Positions 5,706 to 13,970 of a stretch of DNA of 32,000 nucleotides are shown piece after piece. The notes beneath the pieces were generated by a model that saw nothing but the letters and a program-made list of their open reading frames with translations, searched no databases and was not told where the DNA came from. Position 1 is the first letter of the stretch; each line of letters opens with the position of its first letter. The DNA comes from Phycisphaera mikurensis NBRC 102666. GTDB lineage: Bacteria; Planctomycetota; Phycisphaerae; Phycisphaerales; Phycisphaeraceae. The DNA lies in the NCBI RefSeq assembly GCF_000284115.1, contig NC_017080.1:450001-482000 (forward strand), in the 5' to 3' direction. Position numbers and translations under genes: made by a program.

Positions 5706-6554
5706 GTGCACCCGCCACCCGCCGAAGCCGATGAGGACGCCGCCCCCGCACCCTCGGGCGGCGACCGGCGTGACCCCGGCCGCGCGGGCGACTCCGCGTT
5801 CCGGGCGCTGCTGCGCGACCGGCGTCTGCCCGCCTGGCGCAAGTACACCGGCCTGGTCATCGGCCGCCCGGGCCTTCTCCGCCTGCTCTGGCACGAGGCG
5901 GTGATCCTCGCCTGCGGCGACCTGCCGGGGGCGTTGGGGCTGCTGCTGCGGGGCTGGCTCTTCCCCACGCTGCTGGGGGCCTGCGGCGACAAGCCGGTGT
6001 TCGGGCGGGGCATCACGCTGCGTCACCCGCACCGGATCCGGCTGGGCGATCGGGTGATCGTCGACGACCGCTGCGTGCTCGACGCCAAGGGCGGGCACGC
6101 GGTGGCGATCGACCTCGGCGACGACGTCATCCTCGGCCGCAACTCCTCGCTGATCTGCAAGACCACCTCGGGAACCGCCGGGGTGGACGCCGCCGACCCC
6201 GGCGGCCGCATCGTGCTCGGCCCGCGGGCGAACGTCTCGCTGAACTGCACGCTGATCAGCGAGTCGAGCCTCGTGCTCGGCCCGAAGGTGCTCGTCGCCG
6301 GCCACTGCTACGTGATCGCCGGCGGCAACCACGGCGTCGCGCCCTCCGGCGAGGCGATCGTCGACCAGCCGATGGCCGACCGCGGCGGGGTCGAGGTCGG
6401 CGCCGGCGCCTGGATCGGCGCCAACGCGACCGTGCTCGACGGCGTCACCCTCGGGCCCGCGGCCACCGTGGGCGCCGGCGCCGTCGTCCGCGCGGACGTG
6501 CCCGCGCACGCGACCGTGGCCGGGGTGCCGGCGCGGCCGATCCGCGGGCGATGA
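5706..6554 (+). CDS. left-handed beta-helix (hexapeptide-repeat) sugar O-acyltransferase
   Basis: This is the tail of long ORF 4407-6554. Repeated hexapeptide pattern (IRLGDRVIVDDRCVLD, VILGRNSSL, VEVGAGAWIGANATVLDGVTLGPAATVGAGAVV) with GVPARPI near the C-terminus. GTG 5706 is the first plausible in-frame start after the upstream stop, but the start is uncertain. Confidence 0.75.
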   Translation: MHPPPAEADEDAAPAPSGGDRRDPGRAGDSAFRALLRDRRLPAWRKYTGLVIGRPGLLRLLWHEAVILACGDLPGALGLLLRGWLFPTLLGACGDKPVFGRGITLRHPHRIRLGDRVIVDDRCVLDAKGGHAVAIDLGDDVILGRNSSLICKTTSGTAGVDAADPGGRIVLGPRANVSLNCTLISESSLVLGPKVLVAGHCYVIAGGNHGVAPSGEAIVDQPMADRGGVEVGAGAWIGANATVLDGVTLGPAATVGAGAVVRADVPAHATVAGVPARPIRGR

Positions 6555-6612
6555 GCGCGGGGCAGGAACACCCGGTCGCGGTCCCGGGCGGCCACGGCCC
6601 GGTTCAGCTCCT

Positions 6613-7564
6613 CCATCGACGGAGTGGATGTGGCGGCTTGGGCGGACGGATGAGCTGGAAGCGGGAACCCCGCCCGGTCGCGGCTTCGGGCCGTCTCGGT
6701 TGCAATGAGCTTCTACATCGACGGAGTCGATGAGCCACCTGGGCGGGTGGCTCATCCACTCCGTGGATGTGGCGGCTTGGGCGGACGGATGAGCGGGAGC
6801 GGGGAACCACGCCCGATCGCGGCTTCGGGCCGATTCGGTTGCAGTCGGCTTCGACATCGACGGAGTCGATGTGCCACCTGGGCGGGTGGCTCATCCACTC
6901 CGTGGATGTGGCGGCTTGGGGGCACGGATGAGCGGGAAGCGGGGAGCCCGCTTGGTCGCGGCTTCGGGTTGCTTCGGTTGCAATGAGCTTCTACATCGAC
7001 GGAGTCGATGAGCCACCTGGGCGGGTGGCTCATTCACTCCGTGGATGTGGCGGCGTAGGGGTGCGGACGTGCTGGTAGCGGGGAGCCCGCGCGGTCGCGG
7101 CTTCGGGCCGATTCGGTTGCAGTGGGCTTCTACATCGACGGAGTCGATGAGCCACCTGGGCGGGTGGCTCATTCACTCCGTGGATGTGGCGGCTTGGGGG
7201 TGCGGACGTGCTGGTAGCGGGGAGCCCGCGCGGTCGCGGCTTCGGGCCGTTTCGGTTGCAGTCGGCTTCTACATCGACGGAGTCGATGAGCCACCTGGGC
7301 GGGTGGCTCATCCACTCCGTGGATGTGGCGGCTTGGGCGGACGGATGAGCTGGAAGCGGGAACCCCGCCTGGTCGCGGCTTCGGGTTGCTTCGGTTGCAA
7401 TGAGCTTCTACATCGACGGAGTCGATGAGCCACCTGGGCGGGTGGCTCATCCACTCCGTGGATGTGGCGGCTTGGGCGGACGGATGAGCTGGAAGCGGGA
7501 GCCACGCCCGGTCGCGGCTTCGGGCCGTCTCGGTTGCGGTCGGCTTCTCCATCGACGGAGTCGA
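6613..7564. repeat. 139-bp tandem repeat array: one 102-bp copy, six 139-bp copies, one 16-bp stub
   Basis: Direct reading gives copy starts at 6613, 6715, 6854, 6993, 7132, 7271, 7410 and 7549. Each full copy begins CATCGACGGAGTCGATGAGCCACCTGGGCGGGTGGCTCATCCACTCCGTGGATG. The period is not divisible by 3. Confidence 0.95.
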
Positions 7565-7578
7565 TCGGCGGTCCGCGA

Positions 7579-8919
7579 TCAGGCTTCCGGCGTCACCAGG
7601 TCGCCGAGGATCGGTTGCAGGAAGGCCGACCGCCACCCGCGGCGCAGCCGCGAGGGGGGAAGCGGCTGCCCCGCCGCATCGGCGTAGACCAGCGCCGTCA
7701 GCTCCTTCTTGTTCAGCAGCAGCGAAGGCGAGATGCCGGCGTCCTCGGCGAAGGCCCGCACGCGGGGCCAGATCGCGTCCAGCCGGGCCTTGTCCTCCTC
7801 GCTCGGCGGCGGGTTGCGGCGCGCGCGCGGCGGCAGCGGCCCGTCCGCCGCGTCTTTGCAGACGGCGGGGATCTCCGCGGCGTAGTGCTCCTTGACCGGC
7901 CGCGGCACGCCCTTGAAGCCCCGCAACGCCGCGGCGTCGGCCGGCGGGTGCAGCGCCAGGTCGACGAGCACCTGGTCGGCGAGGAACATCCGCACCGGCA
8001 CGTCGTTGCGGATCGCTTCGGCCTGCCGCCAGTGCAGCAGGGCGTCGAGCACCGCCCTGGTCCTCCGCGACATGCCGCGCGTGCCCTGCGCCTTGAGGCG
8101 CCCGGAAAGCGGGTCGGAGACGAACGCTCCCGGCGCACAAAGCCGGCGGTTCTCCTCGGGCACCTTGGCGGTGTGGCCACGCTTGGCGACCTCCTCGTCG
8201 ATCCGCTCCCGGAGCAGCGCGAGGTAGCGGACGTCGTTCGCGGCGTACTCCCGCTTGTCGCCGGTGAGCGGCCGCTTCCGCCAATCGGTGAACTTGTGGT
8301 CGGCGCCCAGGTCGGCGTCGGTCAGGGCGTCGGTGAGCTTGCGCAGCGAGCAGGGGTAGTCCAGGCCGGCGAAGCCCGCGGCGATCTGCGTGTCGTAGAT
8401 GGCCGCCGGCGGCCGGCCCGTCAGGCGCTCAACCGGCTCGAGGTCCTGGAGCCCGGCGTGCACGAGCGTCTCCACCGCCGGGTCGGCGATCAGCTCCCAG
8501 AGCGGCAGCAGGTCGACGCCGGCAAGCGGGTCGATCAGCGTCGCGGTCTGGATCGTCGCCACCTGCAGCAGGCAGAAGATCGGGAAGAAGTTCTGCTCGC
8601 CGATGAACTCGGTGTCGAAGGCGAAGGCGCCGGCCTCGCGCAGCGTCGCGACGAGGTCCAACAGCTCGCCGTCGGTGGTCACAAGCCCCGGCACGTTGGT
8701 GGCCACCAGCGGGTGGTCCAGCGGCTCGGGCGGCGGTGCCAGGTCCAGCTTCGCGATCCGGGCCTCCTCGCGGCGGCGGTGCGGCGGGACGTAACGCGGC
8801 CAGGAGGCGCCGGGGCCCTCGCCGCCGCCGTCGCCGGTGCGGCTGGCGCGGGACGACCGCTTCCGGGGGTGCGGGGCGTCGGTCTCGTGCGGGGCGTTTT
8901 CGGAGGAGGAACGGGTCAT
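7579..8919 (-). CDS. rnd: ribonuclease D (3'-5' exoribonuclease with HRDC region)
   Basis: DEDD exonuclease blocks FAFDTEF, LVHAGLQDLE and YAANDVRYL, followed by an HRDC-like segment (LDALLHWRQAEAIRNDVPVRMFLADQVLVDLA). Confidence 0.9.
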   Translation of the reverse strand: MTRSSSENAPHETDAPHPRKRSSRASRTGDGGGEGPGASWPRYVPPHRRREEARIAKLDLAPPPEPLDHPLVATNVPGLVTTDGELLDLVATLREAGAFAFDTEFIGEQNFFPIFCLLQVATIQTATLIDPLAGVDLLPLWELIADPAVETLVHAGLQDLEPVERLTGRPPAAIYDTQIAAGFAGLDYPCSLRKLTDALTDADLGADHKFTDWRKRPLTGDKREYAANDVRYLALLRERIDEEVAKRGHTAKVPEENRRLCAPGAFVSDPLSGRLKAQGTRGMSRRTRAVLDALLHWRQAEAIRNDVPVRMFLADQVLVDLALHPPADAAALRGFKGVPRPVKEHYAAEIPAVCKDAADGPLPPRARRNPPPSEEDKARLDAIWPRVRAFAEDAGISPSLLLNKKELTALVYADAAGQPLPPSRLRRGWRSAFLQPILGDLVTPEA

Positions 8920-11052: not shown

Positions 11053-11102
11053 GCCTTTCCCGCCGCTTTGGCCGGCGGTCCGCGGGTCGCGGATGCTCCG
11101 GC

Positions 11103-11150
11103 GGGCGGGCGGGCGGGCGGGTGGGCGGGTGGGCGGGTGGGCGGGGTGGG
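11103..11150 (+). repeat. (GGGN)12 G-tract microsatellite, a G-quadruplex-forming motif on the + strand
   Basis: Direct reading: GGGC GGGC GGGC GGGC GGGT GGGC GGGT GGGC GGGT GGGC GGGGT GGG. That is twelve G3+ tracts with 1-nt loops, ending 43 nt upstream of the rfbC ATG. Confidence 0.9.
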
Positions 11151-11193
11151 CGTGGAGCGCCGGTAGATTGTCCTCCCGCTCCGCGTCCACGCC

Positions 11194-11775
11194 ATGCACG
11201 TCACCCCGCTCTCGCCGCCGGGCCTCCTGCGGCTCGTGCCGCCCCGCTTCGGTGACGGGCGGGGCTGGTTCTGCACCGTCTACGCCGCGGAGACGCTCGC
11301 CGGCCTGGGCATCGGCGAGGCCTTCGTGCAGGACAGCGTGAGCTTCTCCGAGCGGGCCGGCACGGTGCGCGGGCTGCATTTCCAGCGTCCGCCGCACGGG
11401 CAGGGCAAGCTGGTCCGCGTGGTCCGCGGTCGGATCCGCGACGTTTCGGTCGACCTGCGGGTCGGCTCGCCCGCCTACGGCGAGCACGCGGCGGTGGAGC
11501 TCGCGGCGGAGGGCGGCGAGCAGGTGTGGGTGCCCCCGGGGTTCGCGCACGGCTTCGTGACGCTCGAAGACGCCACGGAGGTTCACTACAAGAGCACCGC
11601 GGCCTGGGCGCCCGCCTCCGAGGGCGGCCTCGCCTTCGACTGCCCGGCGCTGGGGATCGACTGGGGCGTCACCCGGGCGGAGGCGGTGCTCTCCGAGCGG
11701 GACCGCGAGCTGCCGGGCTTCGCCGGCTTCGAGAGCCCCTTCCGCCCCGGAGCCGAGGCCGCGCGTGACCGCTGA
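11194..11775 (+). CDS. rfbC: dTDP-4-dehydrorhamnose 3,5-epimerase
   Basis: RmlC cupin blocks DGRGWF, RGLHFQ, GKLVRVVRGRIRDVSVDLR and VWVPPGFAHGF. Confidence 0.9.
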   Translation: MHVTPLSPPGLLRLVPPRFGDGRGWFCTVYAAETLAGLGIGEAFVQDSVSFSERAGTVRGLHFQRPPHGQGKLVRVVRGRIRDVSVDLRVGSPAYGEHAAVELAAEGGEQVWVPPGFAHGFVTLEDATEVHYKSTAAWAPASEGGLAFDCPALGIDWGVTRAEAVLSERDRELPGFAGFESPFRPGAEAARDR

Positions 11776-12661
11776 GCCCGACGACTTTGCCGAAGCCACC
11801 GGCCGCGTCGGGGTCGCGGGTGTCACCGGGCTGCTCGGGGCGGAGCTCGCCGCCGAGGTCCGGCGCCGCGGCGGCGTGCCCGTCCCGCTGGCGCGTCCCG
11901 CCTGGGACTTCGCCCGGCCGGACGGCTTCCCCGCGCTGCCCGCGGGCCTGCGGGCGGTGGTCAACGCCGCCGCGTACACCCGCGTGGACGAGGCGGAGGC
12001 GGAGGAGGAGCTCGCGACCACCGTCAACGGCCGGGCGGTCGGGGCGCTGGCGCGTCGCTGCGGCGACGCCGGCGTCCGGCTGGTCCACGTCAGCACCGAT
12101 TACGTGTTCGACGGCCGCCGCGACACGCCCTACCCGGTGGACCACCCGCTGAACCCGCGCTCCGCCTACGGACGCAGCAAGGCGGCGGGCGAGGCGGCGC
12201 TCGCGGCGTCGGGCGCGGCGTCGCTGTGCGTCCGCACGGGCTGGCTGCACGGCCCCGGCGGCCGGTGCTTCGTCCGGACGATCCGCGACGCGCTGCCCCG
12301 CCGCCCCAAGCTCCACGTGGTCGCCGACCAGCGCGGCCGGCCGACGGGCGCGGCCTCGCTCGCGCGGCTCCTGCTCGACCTGCTCGGCGCAGGCGCCCGC
12401 GGCACCTTCCACGGCACCGACGGCGGCGAGGCAACGTGGTTCGGCGTCGCCCGGGCCGTGGCCGGGCGCTACGGCCGCGGGGCCGACGTGCTGCCGGCGG
12501 AGACGCGCGAGTTTGCGCGGCCGGCCCGGCGCCCGGCGTACTCCGTGCTCGACCTCGCCGCGACCGAGGCGCTGCTCGGGCCCCGCCCGCCATGGACGGT
12601 GGCCCTCGCCGACACGCTCGACCGCCTCGACGCGGCCGGGCCGCCGCCCGCAGCCCGATAG
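11765..12661 (+). CDS. rfbD: dTDP-4-dehydrorhamnose reductase
   Basis: RmlD blocks VAGVTGLLG, VNAAAYTRVDEAE, HVSTDYVFDG and YGRSKAAGE. GTG 11765 overlaps the rfbC stop. Confidence 0.85.
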   Translation: MTAEPDDFAEATGRVGVAGVTGLLGAELAAEVRRRGGVPVPLARPAWDFARPDGFPALPAGLRAVVNAAAYTRVDEAEAEEELATTVNGRAVGALARRCGDAGVRLVHVSTDYVFDGRRDTPYPVDHPLNPRSAYGRSKAAGEAALAASGAASLCVRTGWLHGPGGRCFVRTIRDALPRRPKLHVVADQRGRPTGAASLARLLLDLLGAGARGTFHGTDGGEATWFGVARAVAGRYGRGADVLPAETREFARPARRPAYSVLDLAATEALLGPRPPWTVALADTLDRLDAAGPPPAAR

Positions 12662-13773: not shown

Positions 13774-13798
13774 GGAAGCCAGCAGGAAAAAACGCTCG

Positions 13799-13970
13799 CC
13801 CCCGCCGCCCCCGCCGCCCCCGACCCAACCCCCACACCCCAAGCCCCCACCTCCTCACCCCCTCGCTTCCCCACTCCCTCCCTCCCTCACTTCTTCGCTT
13901 CTTTGCTTCCTCACTTCTCCGCTTCCGCACTTCTTCGCTTCCTCGCTTCTCTCCATACCCTCTCTGCCCG
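13799..13970 (+). repeat. C-rich polypyrimidine tract with 12 C3-5 runs and three CACTTCTYCGCTTC direct repeats
   Basis: Direct reading of the 219-bp rfbB-DAHP synthase spacer. By hand count about four fifths of the + strand bases are pyrimidines. C-runs lie at 13799-13886. The 14-mer repeats start at 13888, 13912 and 13928. Confidence 0.85.

Follow-up and report, generated by a model that had tools for sequence, protein, structure and literature searches.

A 139-bp tandem repeat with a conserved 54-nt palindrome in Phycisphaera mikurensis resembles REP-dimer, BIME and NIME repeats

A non-coding tandem array with a period of 139 bp occupies positions 6544-7565 (1,022 nt) of the window, a 32-kb stretch of the chromosome of Phycisphaera mikurensis NBRC 102666, and the repeat from which it is built was found in this genome only, at three or more places. 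Each full unit combines a near-perfect palindrome of 54-56 nt, the arms of which are almost invariant across the three known arrays, with an 85-nt spacer that diverges by 10-20% at fixed length. We read the repeat, at a probability of about 0.5, as a lineage-specific extragenic palindromic family of the REP-dimer/BIME/NIME kind, the core of which would act as a single-strand hairpin.

Anatomy and setting of the array

The array (array 1) lies between the stop codons of two convergent genes, a hexapeptide-repeat acetyltransferase gene on the + strand (5706-6554; Pfam Hexapep match; the called gene L059 11098-11946 maps here) and an RNase D gene on the - strand (7579-8919; 3'-5' exonuclease and HRDC by Pfam), the product of which is 100% identical to P. 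mikurensis WP_041377891/BAM02574. The acetyltransferase stop codon (6552-6554) falls within the degenerate first repeat unit, and 13 nt separate the final array base from the stop codon of RNase D. Six full 139-bp units make up the array together with degenerate or truncated copies at its ends, and TRF gave a period of 139 with 0% indels. As delimited by TRF and unit alignment, the core (6631-7549) consists of six 54-nt palindromes (6716-6769, 6855-6908, 6994-7047, 7133-7186, 7272-7325 and 7411-7464), which start exactly 139 nt apart, alternating with seven 85-nt spacers (6631-6715, 6770-6854, 6909-6993, 7048-7132, 7187-7271, 7326-7410 and 7465-7549). The left edge is a degenerate partial unit (6544-6613), recognised by repeat-family search and local alignment, that corresponds to the 3' spacer part of the unit (positions about 66-139) at ~68% identity with small indels. 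It is followed by a truncated hybrid palindrome, CATCGACGGAGTGGATG (6614-6630), in which the left arm of dyad 1 is fused to the right arm of dyad 3 and the central 37 nt are gone; the distance to the next copy is 102 nt, not 139 nt. At the right end stands a truncated copy, CATCGACGGAGTCGAT (7550-7565), comprising the first 16 nt of dyad 1. Beyond it, on the - strand, CGCGGACCG (7569-7577) is a remnant of an ancestral hairpin downstream of RNase D, which in relatives is conserved directly after the RNase D stop codon. The tandem head-to-tail structure is present at array 1, and the sole other assembly of the genome, built from short reads, breaks there, both contigs ending inside the array as expected of a repeat.

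The palindrome on which the preliminary description was built is present in all six full units, although its coordinates were one base off and the example copy lies at 7272-7325, not 7271-7324. The three local dyads claimed for each unit are all real on direct reading, and in the example copy they occupy 7272-7288 (dyad 1, CATCGAC-GGA-GTCGATG), 7289-7308 (dyad 2, AGCCACC-TGGGCG-GGTGGCT) and 7309-7325 (dyad 3, CATCCAC-TCC-GTGGATG); the outer two are inverted 17-nt variants 37 nt apart that flank the 20-nt central dyad. A base-by-base check agreed with the earlier reading that positions 1-24 are complementary to 54-31 save for exactly two mismatches, G5:G50 and C13:C42, which together form one compensated pair within the outer small hairpins; A7271 and T7326 lengthen the pairing of the long hairpin to 25 bp. 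Extension of the middle hairpin to 11 bp, also proposed earlier, proved real (-21.2 kcal/mol). The substitution C41>T is indeed common to two copies, but these start at 6994 and 7133 and carry the change at 7034 and 7173, where starts of 6993 and 7132 and base 7033 had been given. The palindrome is not a product of chance, its fold having a z-score of -7.95 with 0 of 200 shuffles folding equally well, and the 17-mer matched the 32-kb window 22 times against 0.16 expected, all real copies lying within the array.

Neither promoter-like sites at the array locus nor terminator-like sites on either strand of 6300-7800 were found. Over that interval the G+C-rich hairpin is present with no T-run or U-tract after it, and an intrinsic (Rho-independent) terminator was rejected on that ground. 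Rfam 15 gave no match over the window at the gathering threshold; at E<=10 the matches scored well below it and were mostly to long-hairpin (microRNA-precursor) models. A known RNA family and a promoter or terminator consensus were dropped after these null searches, and a structured spacer RNA was dropped for want of covariation.

Folding of the palindrome

With RNA energies, the long 24-25-bp hairpin reaches -41.6 kcal/mol versus -28.4 kcal/mol for the state with three small hairpins, a gap of 13 kcal/mol, and the Boltzmann weight of the latter state is ~4e-10. The long hairpin is the MFE structure on both strands (MFE structure frequency 0.79, P(1:54)=0.94) and is likewise the minimum-energy fold with DNA parameters, and the fold z-scores of single units are alike on the + and - strands. 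When the minus strand of the entire array is folded, each palindrome makes its own hairpin. The + strand fold of the array is far more stable (-641 versus -496 kcal/mol for the - strand) because the + strand is G-rich. These energies speak against the suggestion that the sequence is tuned to keep both folds available; the single-unit folding on both strands that had been proposed as a check returned a dominant long hairpin and no balanced two-state ensemble. Nor do the small hairpins require the two mismatches, as had been supposed, since both folds would be free of mismatches in a sequence of the form s-L-rc(s) ... s-rc(L)-rc(s); being unnecessary, the mismatches are therefore merely a paired change (G5/C13 versus C42/G50) that marks the two outer dyads. 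On the modelled energies, the three small hairpins can only be, at most, a transient co-transcriptional intermediate. The repeat resembles the REP/BIME type and is not a finely tuned two-state RNA.

Distribution and conservation of the repeat family

Two further arrays were recognised through annotated ORFs. BAM02282/PSMK_01230 is the minus-strand translation of array 2, about 290 genes from array 1, and BAM02614/PSMK_04550 is the translation of array 3, which lies 40 genes from array 1 and has a period of 141 nt; the two "hypothetical proteins" are almost certainly translations of the repeat. The DNA changes in both arrays were deduced by codon-parsimony threading of their ORFs onto the array-1 consensus. 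By locus-tag number all three known arrays fall among the first ~460 chromosome genes, an apparent clustering that is biased, as only arrays annotated as ORFs could be found. Solitary palindromes with <=3 mismatches were absent from ~60 kb of non-redundant P. mikurensis DNA (the 32-kb window plus 72 kb summed over partly overlapping loci). Exact-pattern scans of GTDB species genomes (19-mer), JGI metagenomes (21-mer) and IMG/VR (17-mer), and blastn against plasmids, yielded single chance matches only, mostly in coding DNA; P. mikurensis itself was not returned by the GTDB scan, which thus has no bearing on its other copies. A six-frame pseudo-protein of three units matched only the ORFs of arrays 2 and 3 among 5.8 billion protein clusters, and the array ORF P0121 likewise found only these among 1.84 billion representatives.

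The orthologous site is empty in relatives. Where RNase D is 82% identical and the gene order is the same, the junction is only 181 nt long and holds no unit or palindrome, and two further relatives are likewise without an array at the junction. The patches of similarity between the unit and the relative's ancestral intergenic DNA were weak only (E=0.02), and an origin of the unit there was not accepted. One RAYT-type transposase gene, P0137 (L062 5717-6355), was detected among the best 120 matches examined, and a second, more distant RAYT may exist. The inverted 22-nt repeat that flanks P0137, TGAATGTACCTGACACCTTCGC, has no relation to the palindrome and does not occur in the window; within those best 120 matches, a REP/RAYT link was not supported.

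Palindrome and spacer differ sharply in conservation. Within array 1, 2 of the 54 palindrome columns vary compared with 29 of the 85 spacer columns (p=1.5e-5); residue changes relative to array 1 number 0/36 in the palindrome and 21/56 in the spacer of array 3 (p=5.6e-6), and 4/63 and 24/84, respectively, in array 2 (p=5.9e-4). The array-1 spacers differ pairwise by 4-19 of 85 nt, one of them carrying a 1-nt deletion compensated by an insertion that keeps its length, and their variants recur in different combinations from copy to copy, columns 115-132 showing recombinant haplotypes. A constant core joined to a drifting linker of fixed length clearly indicates that a non-coding hairpin is under constraint. 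Loop sequences vary (G27>A, C46>A), and so does loop length, array 3 having 2 extra nt in its central loop; C46>A is an array 2 change that falls in the spacer of a 17-bp dyad and breaks one pair of the long hairpin. Changes in the stems are wobble-type transitions only, save a single A18>T in the copy at 6855. One of them, the array 2 change A39>G, yields a G:U pair in the + strand but A:C in the - strand and adds one more case, after C41>T, to the earlier hint that a + strand transcript is the functional molecule, but the two events give p=0.25 only. The covariation check that had been proposed, for which no homologues outside the genome were found, showed among the three arrays that the stems are conserved as sequence and not by covariation; the 85-nt spacer showed 0 compensatory pairs for any RNA fold and a positive covariation term. 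Protein recognition or recent homogenisation would explain such conservation of stem sequence no less well than a hairpin role.

Comparison with known repeats and alternative readings

REPs are short imperfect palindromes, one end of which bears an unpaired GTAG (or CGTC) tag (PMC3733652). Like REP dimers/REPINs and BIME clusters such as E. coli BIME-2 (PMC2817692, PMC3733652, PMC3116915), the P. mikurensis repeat is a G+C-rich extragenic inverted pair of two variants (cf. the Y and Z REPs) that can fold into one larger hairpin, lies downstream of genes in the position between convergent ORFs that is often seen, and is species-specific; its pairs are reiterated in tandem with linker DNA, dyads 1 and 3 recurring 37 nt apart every 139 nt, six times, which is the arrangement of a BIME cluster. 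Against a REP-type reading, there is no GTAG/CGTC tag, the outer flanks being ...CTTCTA/CATCGAC and GTGGATG/TGGCGG while the inner flanks abut the middle dyad, and no solitary copy occurs in the ~60 kb scanned. REPs and REPINs number >100 dispersed singletons or dimers per genome; three arrays are known here, and the ~60 kb holds no singleton or dimer. The RAYT gene P0137 is not flanked by cognate palindromes. The repeat also differs from BIMEs in that its middle linker forms a perfect 7-bp dyad of its own and in that the unit (139 bp) and the linker between palindromes (85 nt) are longer. The NIMEs (dRS3/NTS plus RS; PMC1797815, PMC11893778) provide the second likeness: a conserved hairpin repeat alternates with far less conserved spacer repeats of ~50-150 bp at several intergenic loci per genome, in dynamic, lineage-specific arrays. 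The conserved hairpin of NIMEs is a protein target, of a phage recombinase and of the ssDNA nuclease SsnA (PMC1797815, PMC11893778). The likeness is architectural only, the dRS3 core ATTCCC-N8-GGGAAT being absent from the P. mikurensis repeat, whose palindrome is much longer, whose spacers are one family of fixed length, and for which no Ssn-like or recombinase partner was identified.

Other regularly repeated systems fit less well. As in CRISPR arrays, partly palindromic repeats recur at regular intervals at several loci, separated by DNA that is less conserved, but the P. mikurensis spacers are mutually homologous (80-95% identity) with a length of 85 nt, the 54-nt repeat is palindromic throughout, and no cas genes were found in the 32-kb window or its extensions; a CRISPR array was excluded on the homologous spacers and the lack of cas genes. 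Integron attC sites (e.g. the Vibrio cholerae repeats) are also imperfect palindromes of ~55-140 nt, present in many copies in one region, that work as folded single strands in which unpaired bases are informative. However, the P. mikurensis palindrome, ending in ACATCGAC...GTGGATGT, has no R''/R' core sites (RYYYAAC/GTTRRRY), its copies enclose 85 homologous nt and no cassettes, and no integrase occurs among the called genes; attC was excluded on this anatomy. Bacterial minisatellites or VNTRs, such as the mycobacterial MIRUs, are similar as head-to-tail intergenic repeats of tens to ~100 bp with several loci and degenerate edges that break short-read assemblies, but MIRUs lack a long palindromic core that is constrained separately, and they frequently contain small ORFs coupled to the neighbouring genes.

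In the reading that we favour, the repeat would have arrived at the junction of RNase D and the acetyltransferase, as well as at two or more further loci, and head-to-tail amplification by slippage or unequal recombination would have left the degenerate and truncated end copies. In a single-stranded state, either read-through RNA from one of the convergent genes or ssDNA, the core would form one 24-25-bp G+C-rich hairpin, the likeliest effect of which would be a barrier to read-through and to 3' exonucleases between the two genes. The strict conservation of the arms suggests that a sequence-specific protein may also recognise the hairpin. The fixed 85-nt spacer is not accounted for by this hairpin-repeat model.

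That spacer length, held despite 10-20% divergence, is one of several features that would suit an array of duplex-DNA protein-binding sites, a doubtful but still appreciable alternative in which the three dyads per unit (two 7-3-7, one 7-6-7) are operators for a dimeric protein and the array would function in the manner of a sopC-type plasmid centromere, a binding site for gyrase or a nucleoid protein (as in E. coli BIME-2) or a site-specific recombination or phage attachment site (as in Neisseria dRS3). The arms are conserved as sequence across the three arrays, the paired change of G5/C13 to C/G preserves the perfect dyad symmetry of each 17-bp site, the array 2 change C46>A alters only the spacer of the dyad yet costs the long hairpin a pair, and the three known arrays all lie within the first ~460 genes, although the ORF-based detection biases that clustering. 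A rigid dimer site is argued against by array 3, where the 2 nt added to the central dyad spacer would rotate the half-sites, and no recombinase, ParB/ParA-type or regulator gene adjoins array 1, the genes around which encode sugar and polysaccharide enzymes, including polysaccharide synthesis. One could also envisage, as an unlikely case, a functionless minisatellite of local origin that spread by ectopic recombination and in which recombinogenic hairpins homogenise arms faster than spacers, conversion tracts beginning at the hairpins and hairpin-templated repair correcting the arms. Template switching at quasipalindromes yields compensated changes, and the compensated G5/C13 change could be such a product; degenerate edges around homogeneous interior copies, as in concerted satellites, the shuffled spacer haplotypes and the restriction of the family to one species point the same way. 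Neutral conversion, however, does not reduce the long-term substitution rate, and the arms are near-identical though the spacers differ by 10-20%; for arrays 40 and ~290 genes apart to be homogenised, ectopic conversion tracts would have to be frequent and very short, and the spacer length is held without net indels.

The earlier idea of a + strand structured ncRNA that switches between three small hairpins and one long hairpin appears improbable. The two independent stem transitions, which both give G:U in the + strand and A:C in the - strand, and the more stable + strand fold of the array are in its favour, and the small hairpins would presumably form first during transcription; but the three-hairpin state, 13 kcal/mol weaker, is only ~4e-10 of the ensemble, the spacers lack covariation, Rfam offers nothing even at E<=10 beyond generic hairpin (miRNA-model) matches, there is no promoter-like site, the two transitions give no better than p=0.25, and single-unit z-scores are similar on both strands. 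That the arrays encode PSMK_01230, PSMK_04550 or similar proteins is scarcely credible, even though GenBank annotates ORFs over arrays 2 and 3 and the compensated 1-nt deletion and insertion keep one spacer at its length: 139 is not a multiple of 3, which places successive units in different frames, array 1 has stops in all frames of both strands (ORFs <=127 aa), and the two products have no Pfam domain and only each other as relatives among the clusters and representatives searched. Unlike the real genes of the window, moreover, the array ORFs appear under GenBank (BAM) accessions only, with no RefSeq WP_ or draft-genome MBB accession listed. A coding repeat and a type III antitoxin array were both rejected on anatomy. 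There is, finally, a small chance of an undescribed hairpin-repeat system, in which a dedicated protein reads the 54-nt hairpin and sets the 139-bp spacing or the arrays are transcribed and cut into unit-length structured RNAs. Such a protein might be a nuclease specific for single strands, a recombinase or an HUH enzyme distinct from the P0137 RAYT.

For P. mikurensis itself, the repeat almost certainly accounts for two hypothetical proteins in the databases, PSMK_01230 and PSMK_04550, and its 139-bp units break short-read assemblies of the genome. Extragenic palindromic repeats are well studied in Proteobacteria and hardly in Planctomycetota, and the core of this family is unusually long, with three dyads. 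Should the repeat have a partner protein, the case would be similar to that of dRS3/NTS and SsnA, and a dedicated protein, if there is one, might spread the arrays or use them, in recombination at island borders or in chromosome organisation near the origin.

Anatomy of array 1

Tandem Repeats Finder detected a 139-bp period at 6624-7565 (6.8 copies, 89% matches, no indels), and local alignment showed that a degenerate first unit reaches back to 6544; array 1 therefore covers 6544-7565, which corresponds to 1,022 nt or ~7.35 units. Array 1 takes up the whole interval between two convergent genes. The first (5706-6554, + strand) encodes a hexapeptide-repeat acetyltransferase and has its stop codon inside the degenerate first unit; the second (7579-8919, - strand) encodes RNase D, and 13 nt separate its stop from the last base of the array. 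The window belongs to the chromosome of Phycisphaera mikurensis NBRC 102666 and has a G+C content of 71-80%; its RNase D is identical to WP_041377891/BAM02574, and accessions in the range BAM02572-BAM02593 belong to other window proteins. The other genes within ~40 kb of array 1 encode sugar or polysaccharide enzymes and transporters, and no recombinase, transposase, cas or partition gene was found among them. The acetyltransferase stop codon lies within GATGAGC (window 6544-6554), which aligns with the spacer motif GGATGAGC, and the C-terminus of the protein (…PIRGR-stop) ends at the same position as that of an array-less relative (…PIRRG-stop). Two contigs of the short-read P. mikurensis assembly GCA_014207395.1, of 126 kb and 106 kb, both terminate in array 1. 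Elsewhere in the window, short low-complexity repeats are clustered in an intergenic region at 13797-13950 (CGCCCCCGC x2.9; CT-rich periods of 8, 16 and 24 nt), near which a Logan contig of the same genome stops (inferred window coordinate ~13,783), and a microsatellite-like run of ~50 nt, (GGCG)n / GGCGGGTG, is present at 11100-11152.

Six complete copies of the palindrome start at 6716, 6855, 6994, 7133, 7272 and 7411. At the left end of the array a 17-nt hybrid, CATCGACGGAGTGGATG (6614-6630), equals the palindrome minus its central 37 nt, and the right-end copy consists of the first 16 nt only (7550-7565). The 54-nt composite sequence is exactly that given in the preliminary description, but the example copy lies one base rightward, at 7272-7325, and A7271 and T7326 form a 25th pair of the long hairpin. 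Positions 1-24 pair with 54-31 save for the mismatches G5:G50 and C13:C42, and the three 7-bp hairpins and the 11-bp extended middle hairpin can each form, as had been proposed. The C41>T substitution is indeed common to two copies, although these are the copies at 6994 and 7133 (bases 7034 and 7173); with A18>T in copy 6855, it accounts for all substitutions in the complete palindromes. The fold z-score was -7.95, none of 200 shuffles was equally stable, and a 17-mer gave 22 matches against 0.16 expected, the real ones all being inside array 1. These values exclude chance, and the palindrome is a real, strongly non-random structure.

Two further arrays and conservation of the palindrome

Translation of three units in all frames, followed by searches of protein collections, uncovered two more arrays, and the repeat is thus spread over several loci of one genome. 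Residues 117-263 of BAM02282 (PSMK_01230, 263 aa) correspond to 3.2 units translated without gaps from the - strand, with 74-78% identity to array 1; because the first 116 residues of this protein are not present in the window, it represents a second array, which lies ~290 genes from array 1. The third array, of which BAM02614 (PSMK_04550, 109 aa) is the - strand translation, lies ~25 kb past the window end and 40 genes right of RNase D. The unit of array 3 is 47 codons, or 141 nt, and the central-hairpin loop accounts for its extra 2 nt (PPAHRW vs frames PPAQV/PPRW). PSMK_01230 and PSMK_04550 are almost certainly spurious ORF calls over repeat arrays; both are listed under GenBank (BAM) numbers alone (BAM02282.1 and BAM02614.1), and for neither is a RefSeq WP_ or draft-genome MBB accession given.

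Within array 1, 2 of 54 palindrome columns are variable, against 29 of 85 in the spacer (Fisher p = 1.5e-5). Arrays 2 and 3, known from protein only, were threaded onto the array-1 consensus by taking the most parsimonious codon changes, and their comparisons with array 1 count residue changes, not DNA columns: array 3 differs at 0 of 36 palindrome and 21 of 56 spacer residues (Fisher p = 5.6e-6), and array 2 at 4 of 63 and 24 of 84 (Fisher p = 5.9e-4). The four palindrome changes of array 2 are A39>G (twice), a stem transition that gives G:U on the + strand; G27>A, in the central loop; and C46>A, in the loop of dyad 3 at a position that is paired in the long hairpin. The counts and the mapped changes indicate that the arms are near-constant in sequence, the loops are free in both sequence and length, and the linker is drifting. 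Despite 10-20% sequence divergence, linker length is 85 nt in 12 of the 12 judgeable spacers of arrays 1-3, as read for arrays 2 and 3 from gap-free protein alignments; the spacer at 6770-6854 carries a compensated 1-nt deletion and insertion. No covariation supporting any RNA fold was detected in the spacer. Of the two strands, only the + strand accommodates both independent stem transitions as G:U pairs, which agrees with the earlier hint of a functional + strand transcript, but these are two events (p = 0.25).

Folding of the palindrome

The minimum-energy structure is the long hairpin on both strands. As RNA it reaches -41.6 kcal/mol on the + strand (MFE structure frequency 0.79; P(1:54) = 0.94) and -40.4 kcal/mol on the - strand, and as DNA -23.9 and -22.6 kcal/mol. 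The palindrome had been thought to be tuned so that both folds remain available; the three-hairpin structure, at -28.4 kcal/mol, has a Boltzmann weight of 4e-10, and the pairs of the outer small hairpins have a probability of ~4e-9 each, so there is no balance between two folds. The small hairpins would at most be the first to form during transcription and be displaced later. When the whole array was folded, each palindrome formed its own long hairpin on the - strand, whereas some palindromes paired with adjacent ones on the + strand; the + strand fold was the more stable (-641 vs -496 kcal/mol), as the G-richness of this strand would predict.

Nor are the two mismatches what makes the small hairpins perfect, since both schemes would be satisfied without mismatch by a design of the form s-L-rc(s)...s-rc(L)-rc(s). 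A paired change separates dyad 1 (CATCGAC...GTCGATG) from dyad 3 (CATCCAC...GTGGATG); it preserves the perfect pairing of either 17-nt dyad at a cost to the long stem. The same codons, His (CAC) and Asp (GAC), are found at these positions in arrays 2 and 3, so the difference is old. Hairpin-templated correction of quasi-palindromes is an established mutational mechanism, and the paired difference could reflect either selection on the local dyads or such a correction.

Relatives, analogues and possible roles

Four related genomes were inspected at RNase D (80-82% identity). One of them (loci L064/L065) has kept this convergent gene order (RNase D, acetyltransferase, epimerase, glycosyltransferase, FAD oxidoreductase), with the stops of the convergent genes just 181 nt apart, and this orthologous site is empty, having no unit and no palindrome; array 1 is accordingly read as a gain in the P. 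mikurensis lineage. Directly after the RNase D stop it carries a 13-bp inverted repeat, CCGCGGACCGTCG...CGACGGTCCGCGG (L064 9194-9239, L065 4835-4880), which is probably the ancestral 3' hairpin; in P. mikurensis the first arm alone is left (CGCGGACCG, 7569-7577), abutting array 1. Loci L001 and L002 have no array and carry different genes downstream of RNase D, and L067 has no palindrome in its 5.3 kb, a contig that stops 20 nt past the RNase D gene, short of the junction. No homologues of the repeat were found in GTDB species genomes, JGI metagenomes, IMG/VR or PLSDB, in which the matches were single chance ones, and no Rfam family matched. The GTDB scan, which used an exact 19-mer, returned no P. 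mikurensis contig though the window contains the 19-mer (and arrays 2 and 3 very probably do too); it therefore says nothing on P. mikurensis itself, whose genome seems to be either missing from the scanned collection or masked there. The family has been seen in one genome.

RAYT-type Y1 transposase genes adjoin RNase D in L002 (NCBIfam REP_Tyr_transpos, 93 bits; cut-off 80), where four tandem 31-33-nt repeats (CATCTCCGCCCGGGCCTGGACACCACCGATG-like, 7510-7657) are located just 3' of RNase D, followed by a RAYT gene. The RNase D 3' junction seems to gather repeats in more than one lineage. A RAYT was therefore sought in P. mikurensis, and a gene of this type, P0137 (71% identical), was found. 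An inverted 22-nt repeat, TGAATGTACCTGACACCTTCGC, surrounds it (L062 5629-5651 and 6354-6375, on contig JACHEL010000024.1), and the same repeat surrounds the L002 RAYT gene (27 nt, 100% complementary; 11716-11742 and 12450-12476), with more copies close by. In the terms of PMC3733652, P0137 belongs to the RAYTs that have long terminal inverted repeats at their flanks. TGAATGTACCTGACACCTTCGC is a separate repeat family common to P. mikurensis and L002 and is unrelated to the 54-nt palindrome. Since the GTAG or CGTC tag typical of REPs is missing from the palindrome as well, and no solitary copies were found in ~60 kb of non-redundant P. mikurensis DNA (window plus extensions), membership in a RAYT-mobilised REP family is not supported.

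A coding role, a CRISPR, an integron and any known RNA family are effectively excluded. The repeat resembles REP/BIME elements (PMC2817692, PMC3733652) in its inverted variant dyads, its tandem arrangement with linker DNA and its location between convergent ORFs. The other close analogue is the neisserial NIME array, in which a conserved hairpin repeat, targeted both by a phage recombinase and by the single-strand nuclease SsnA, alternates with poorly conserved RS elements of ~50-150 bp (PMC1797815, PMC11893778). The arrays may have a role in duplex protein binding or recombination, or they may constitute a purely neutral minisatellite with biased conversion. The best reading of the palindrome is that it forms the constrained core of a BIME/NIME-like extragenic palindromic tandem repeat, specific to the species and present in at least three arrays. 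These arrays would have been amplified via slippage or unequal exchange, and the hairpin, as RNA or ssDNA and possibly with a sequence-specific protein partner, would block read-through or exonucleases between the convergent genes.
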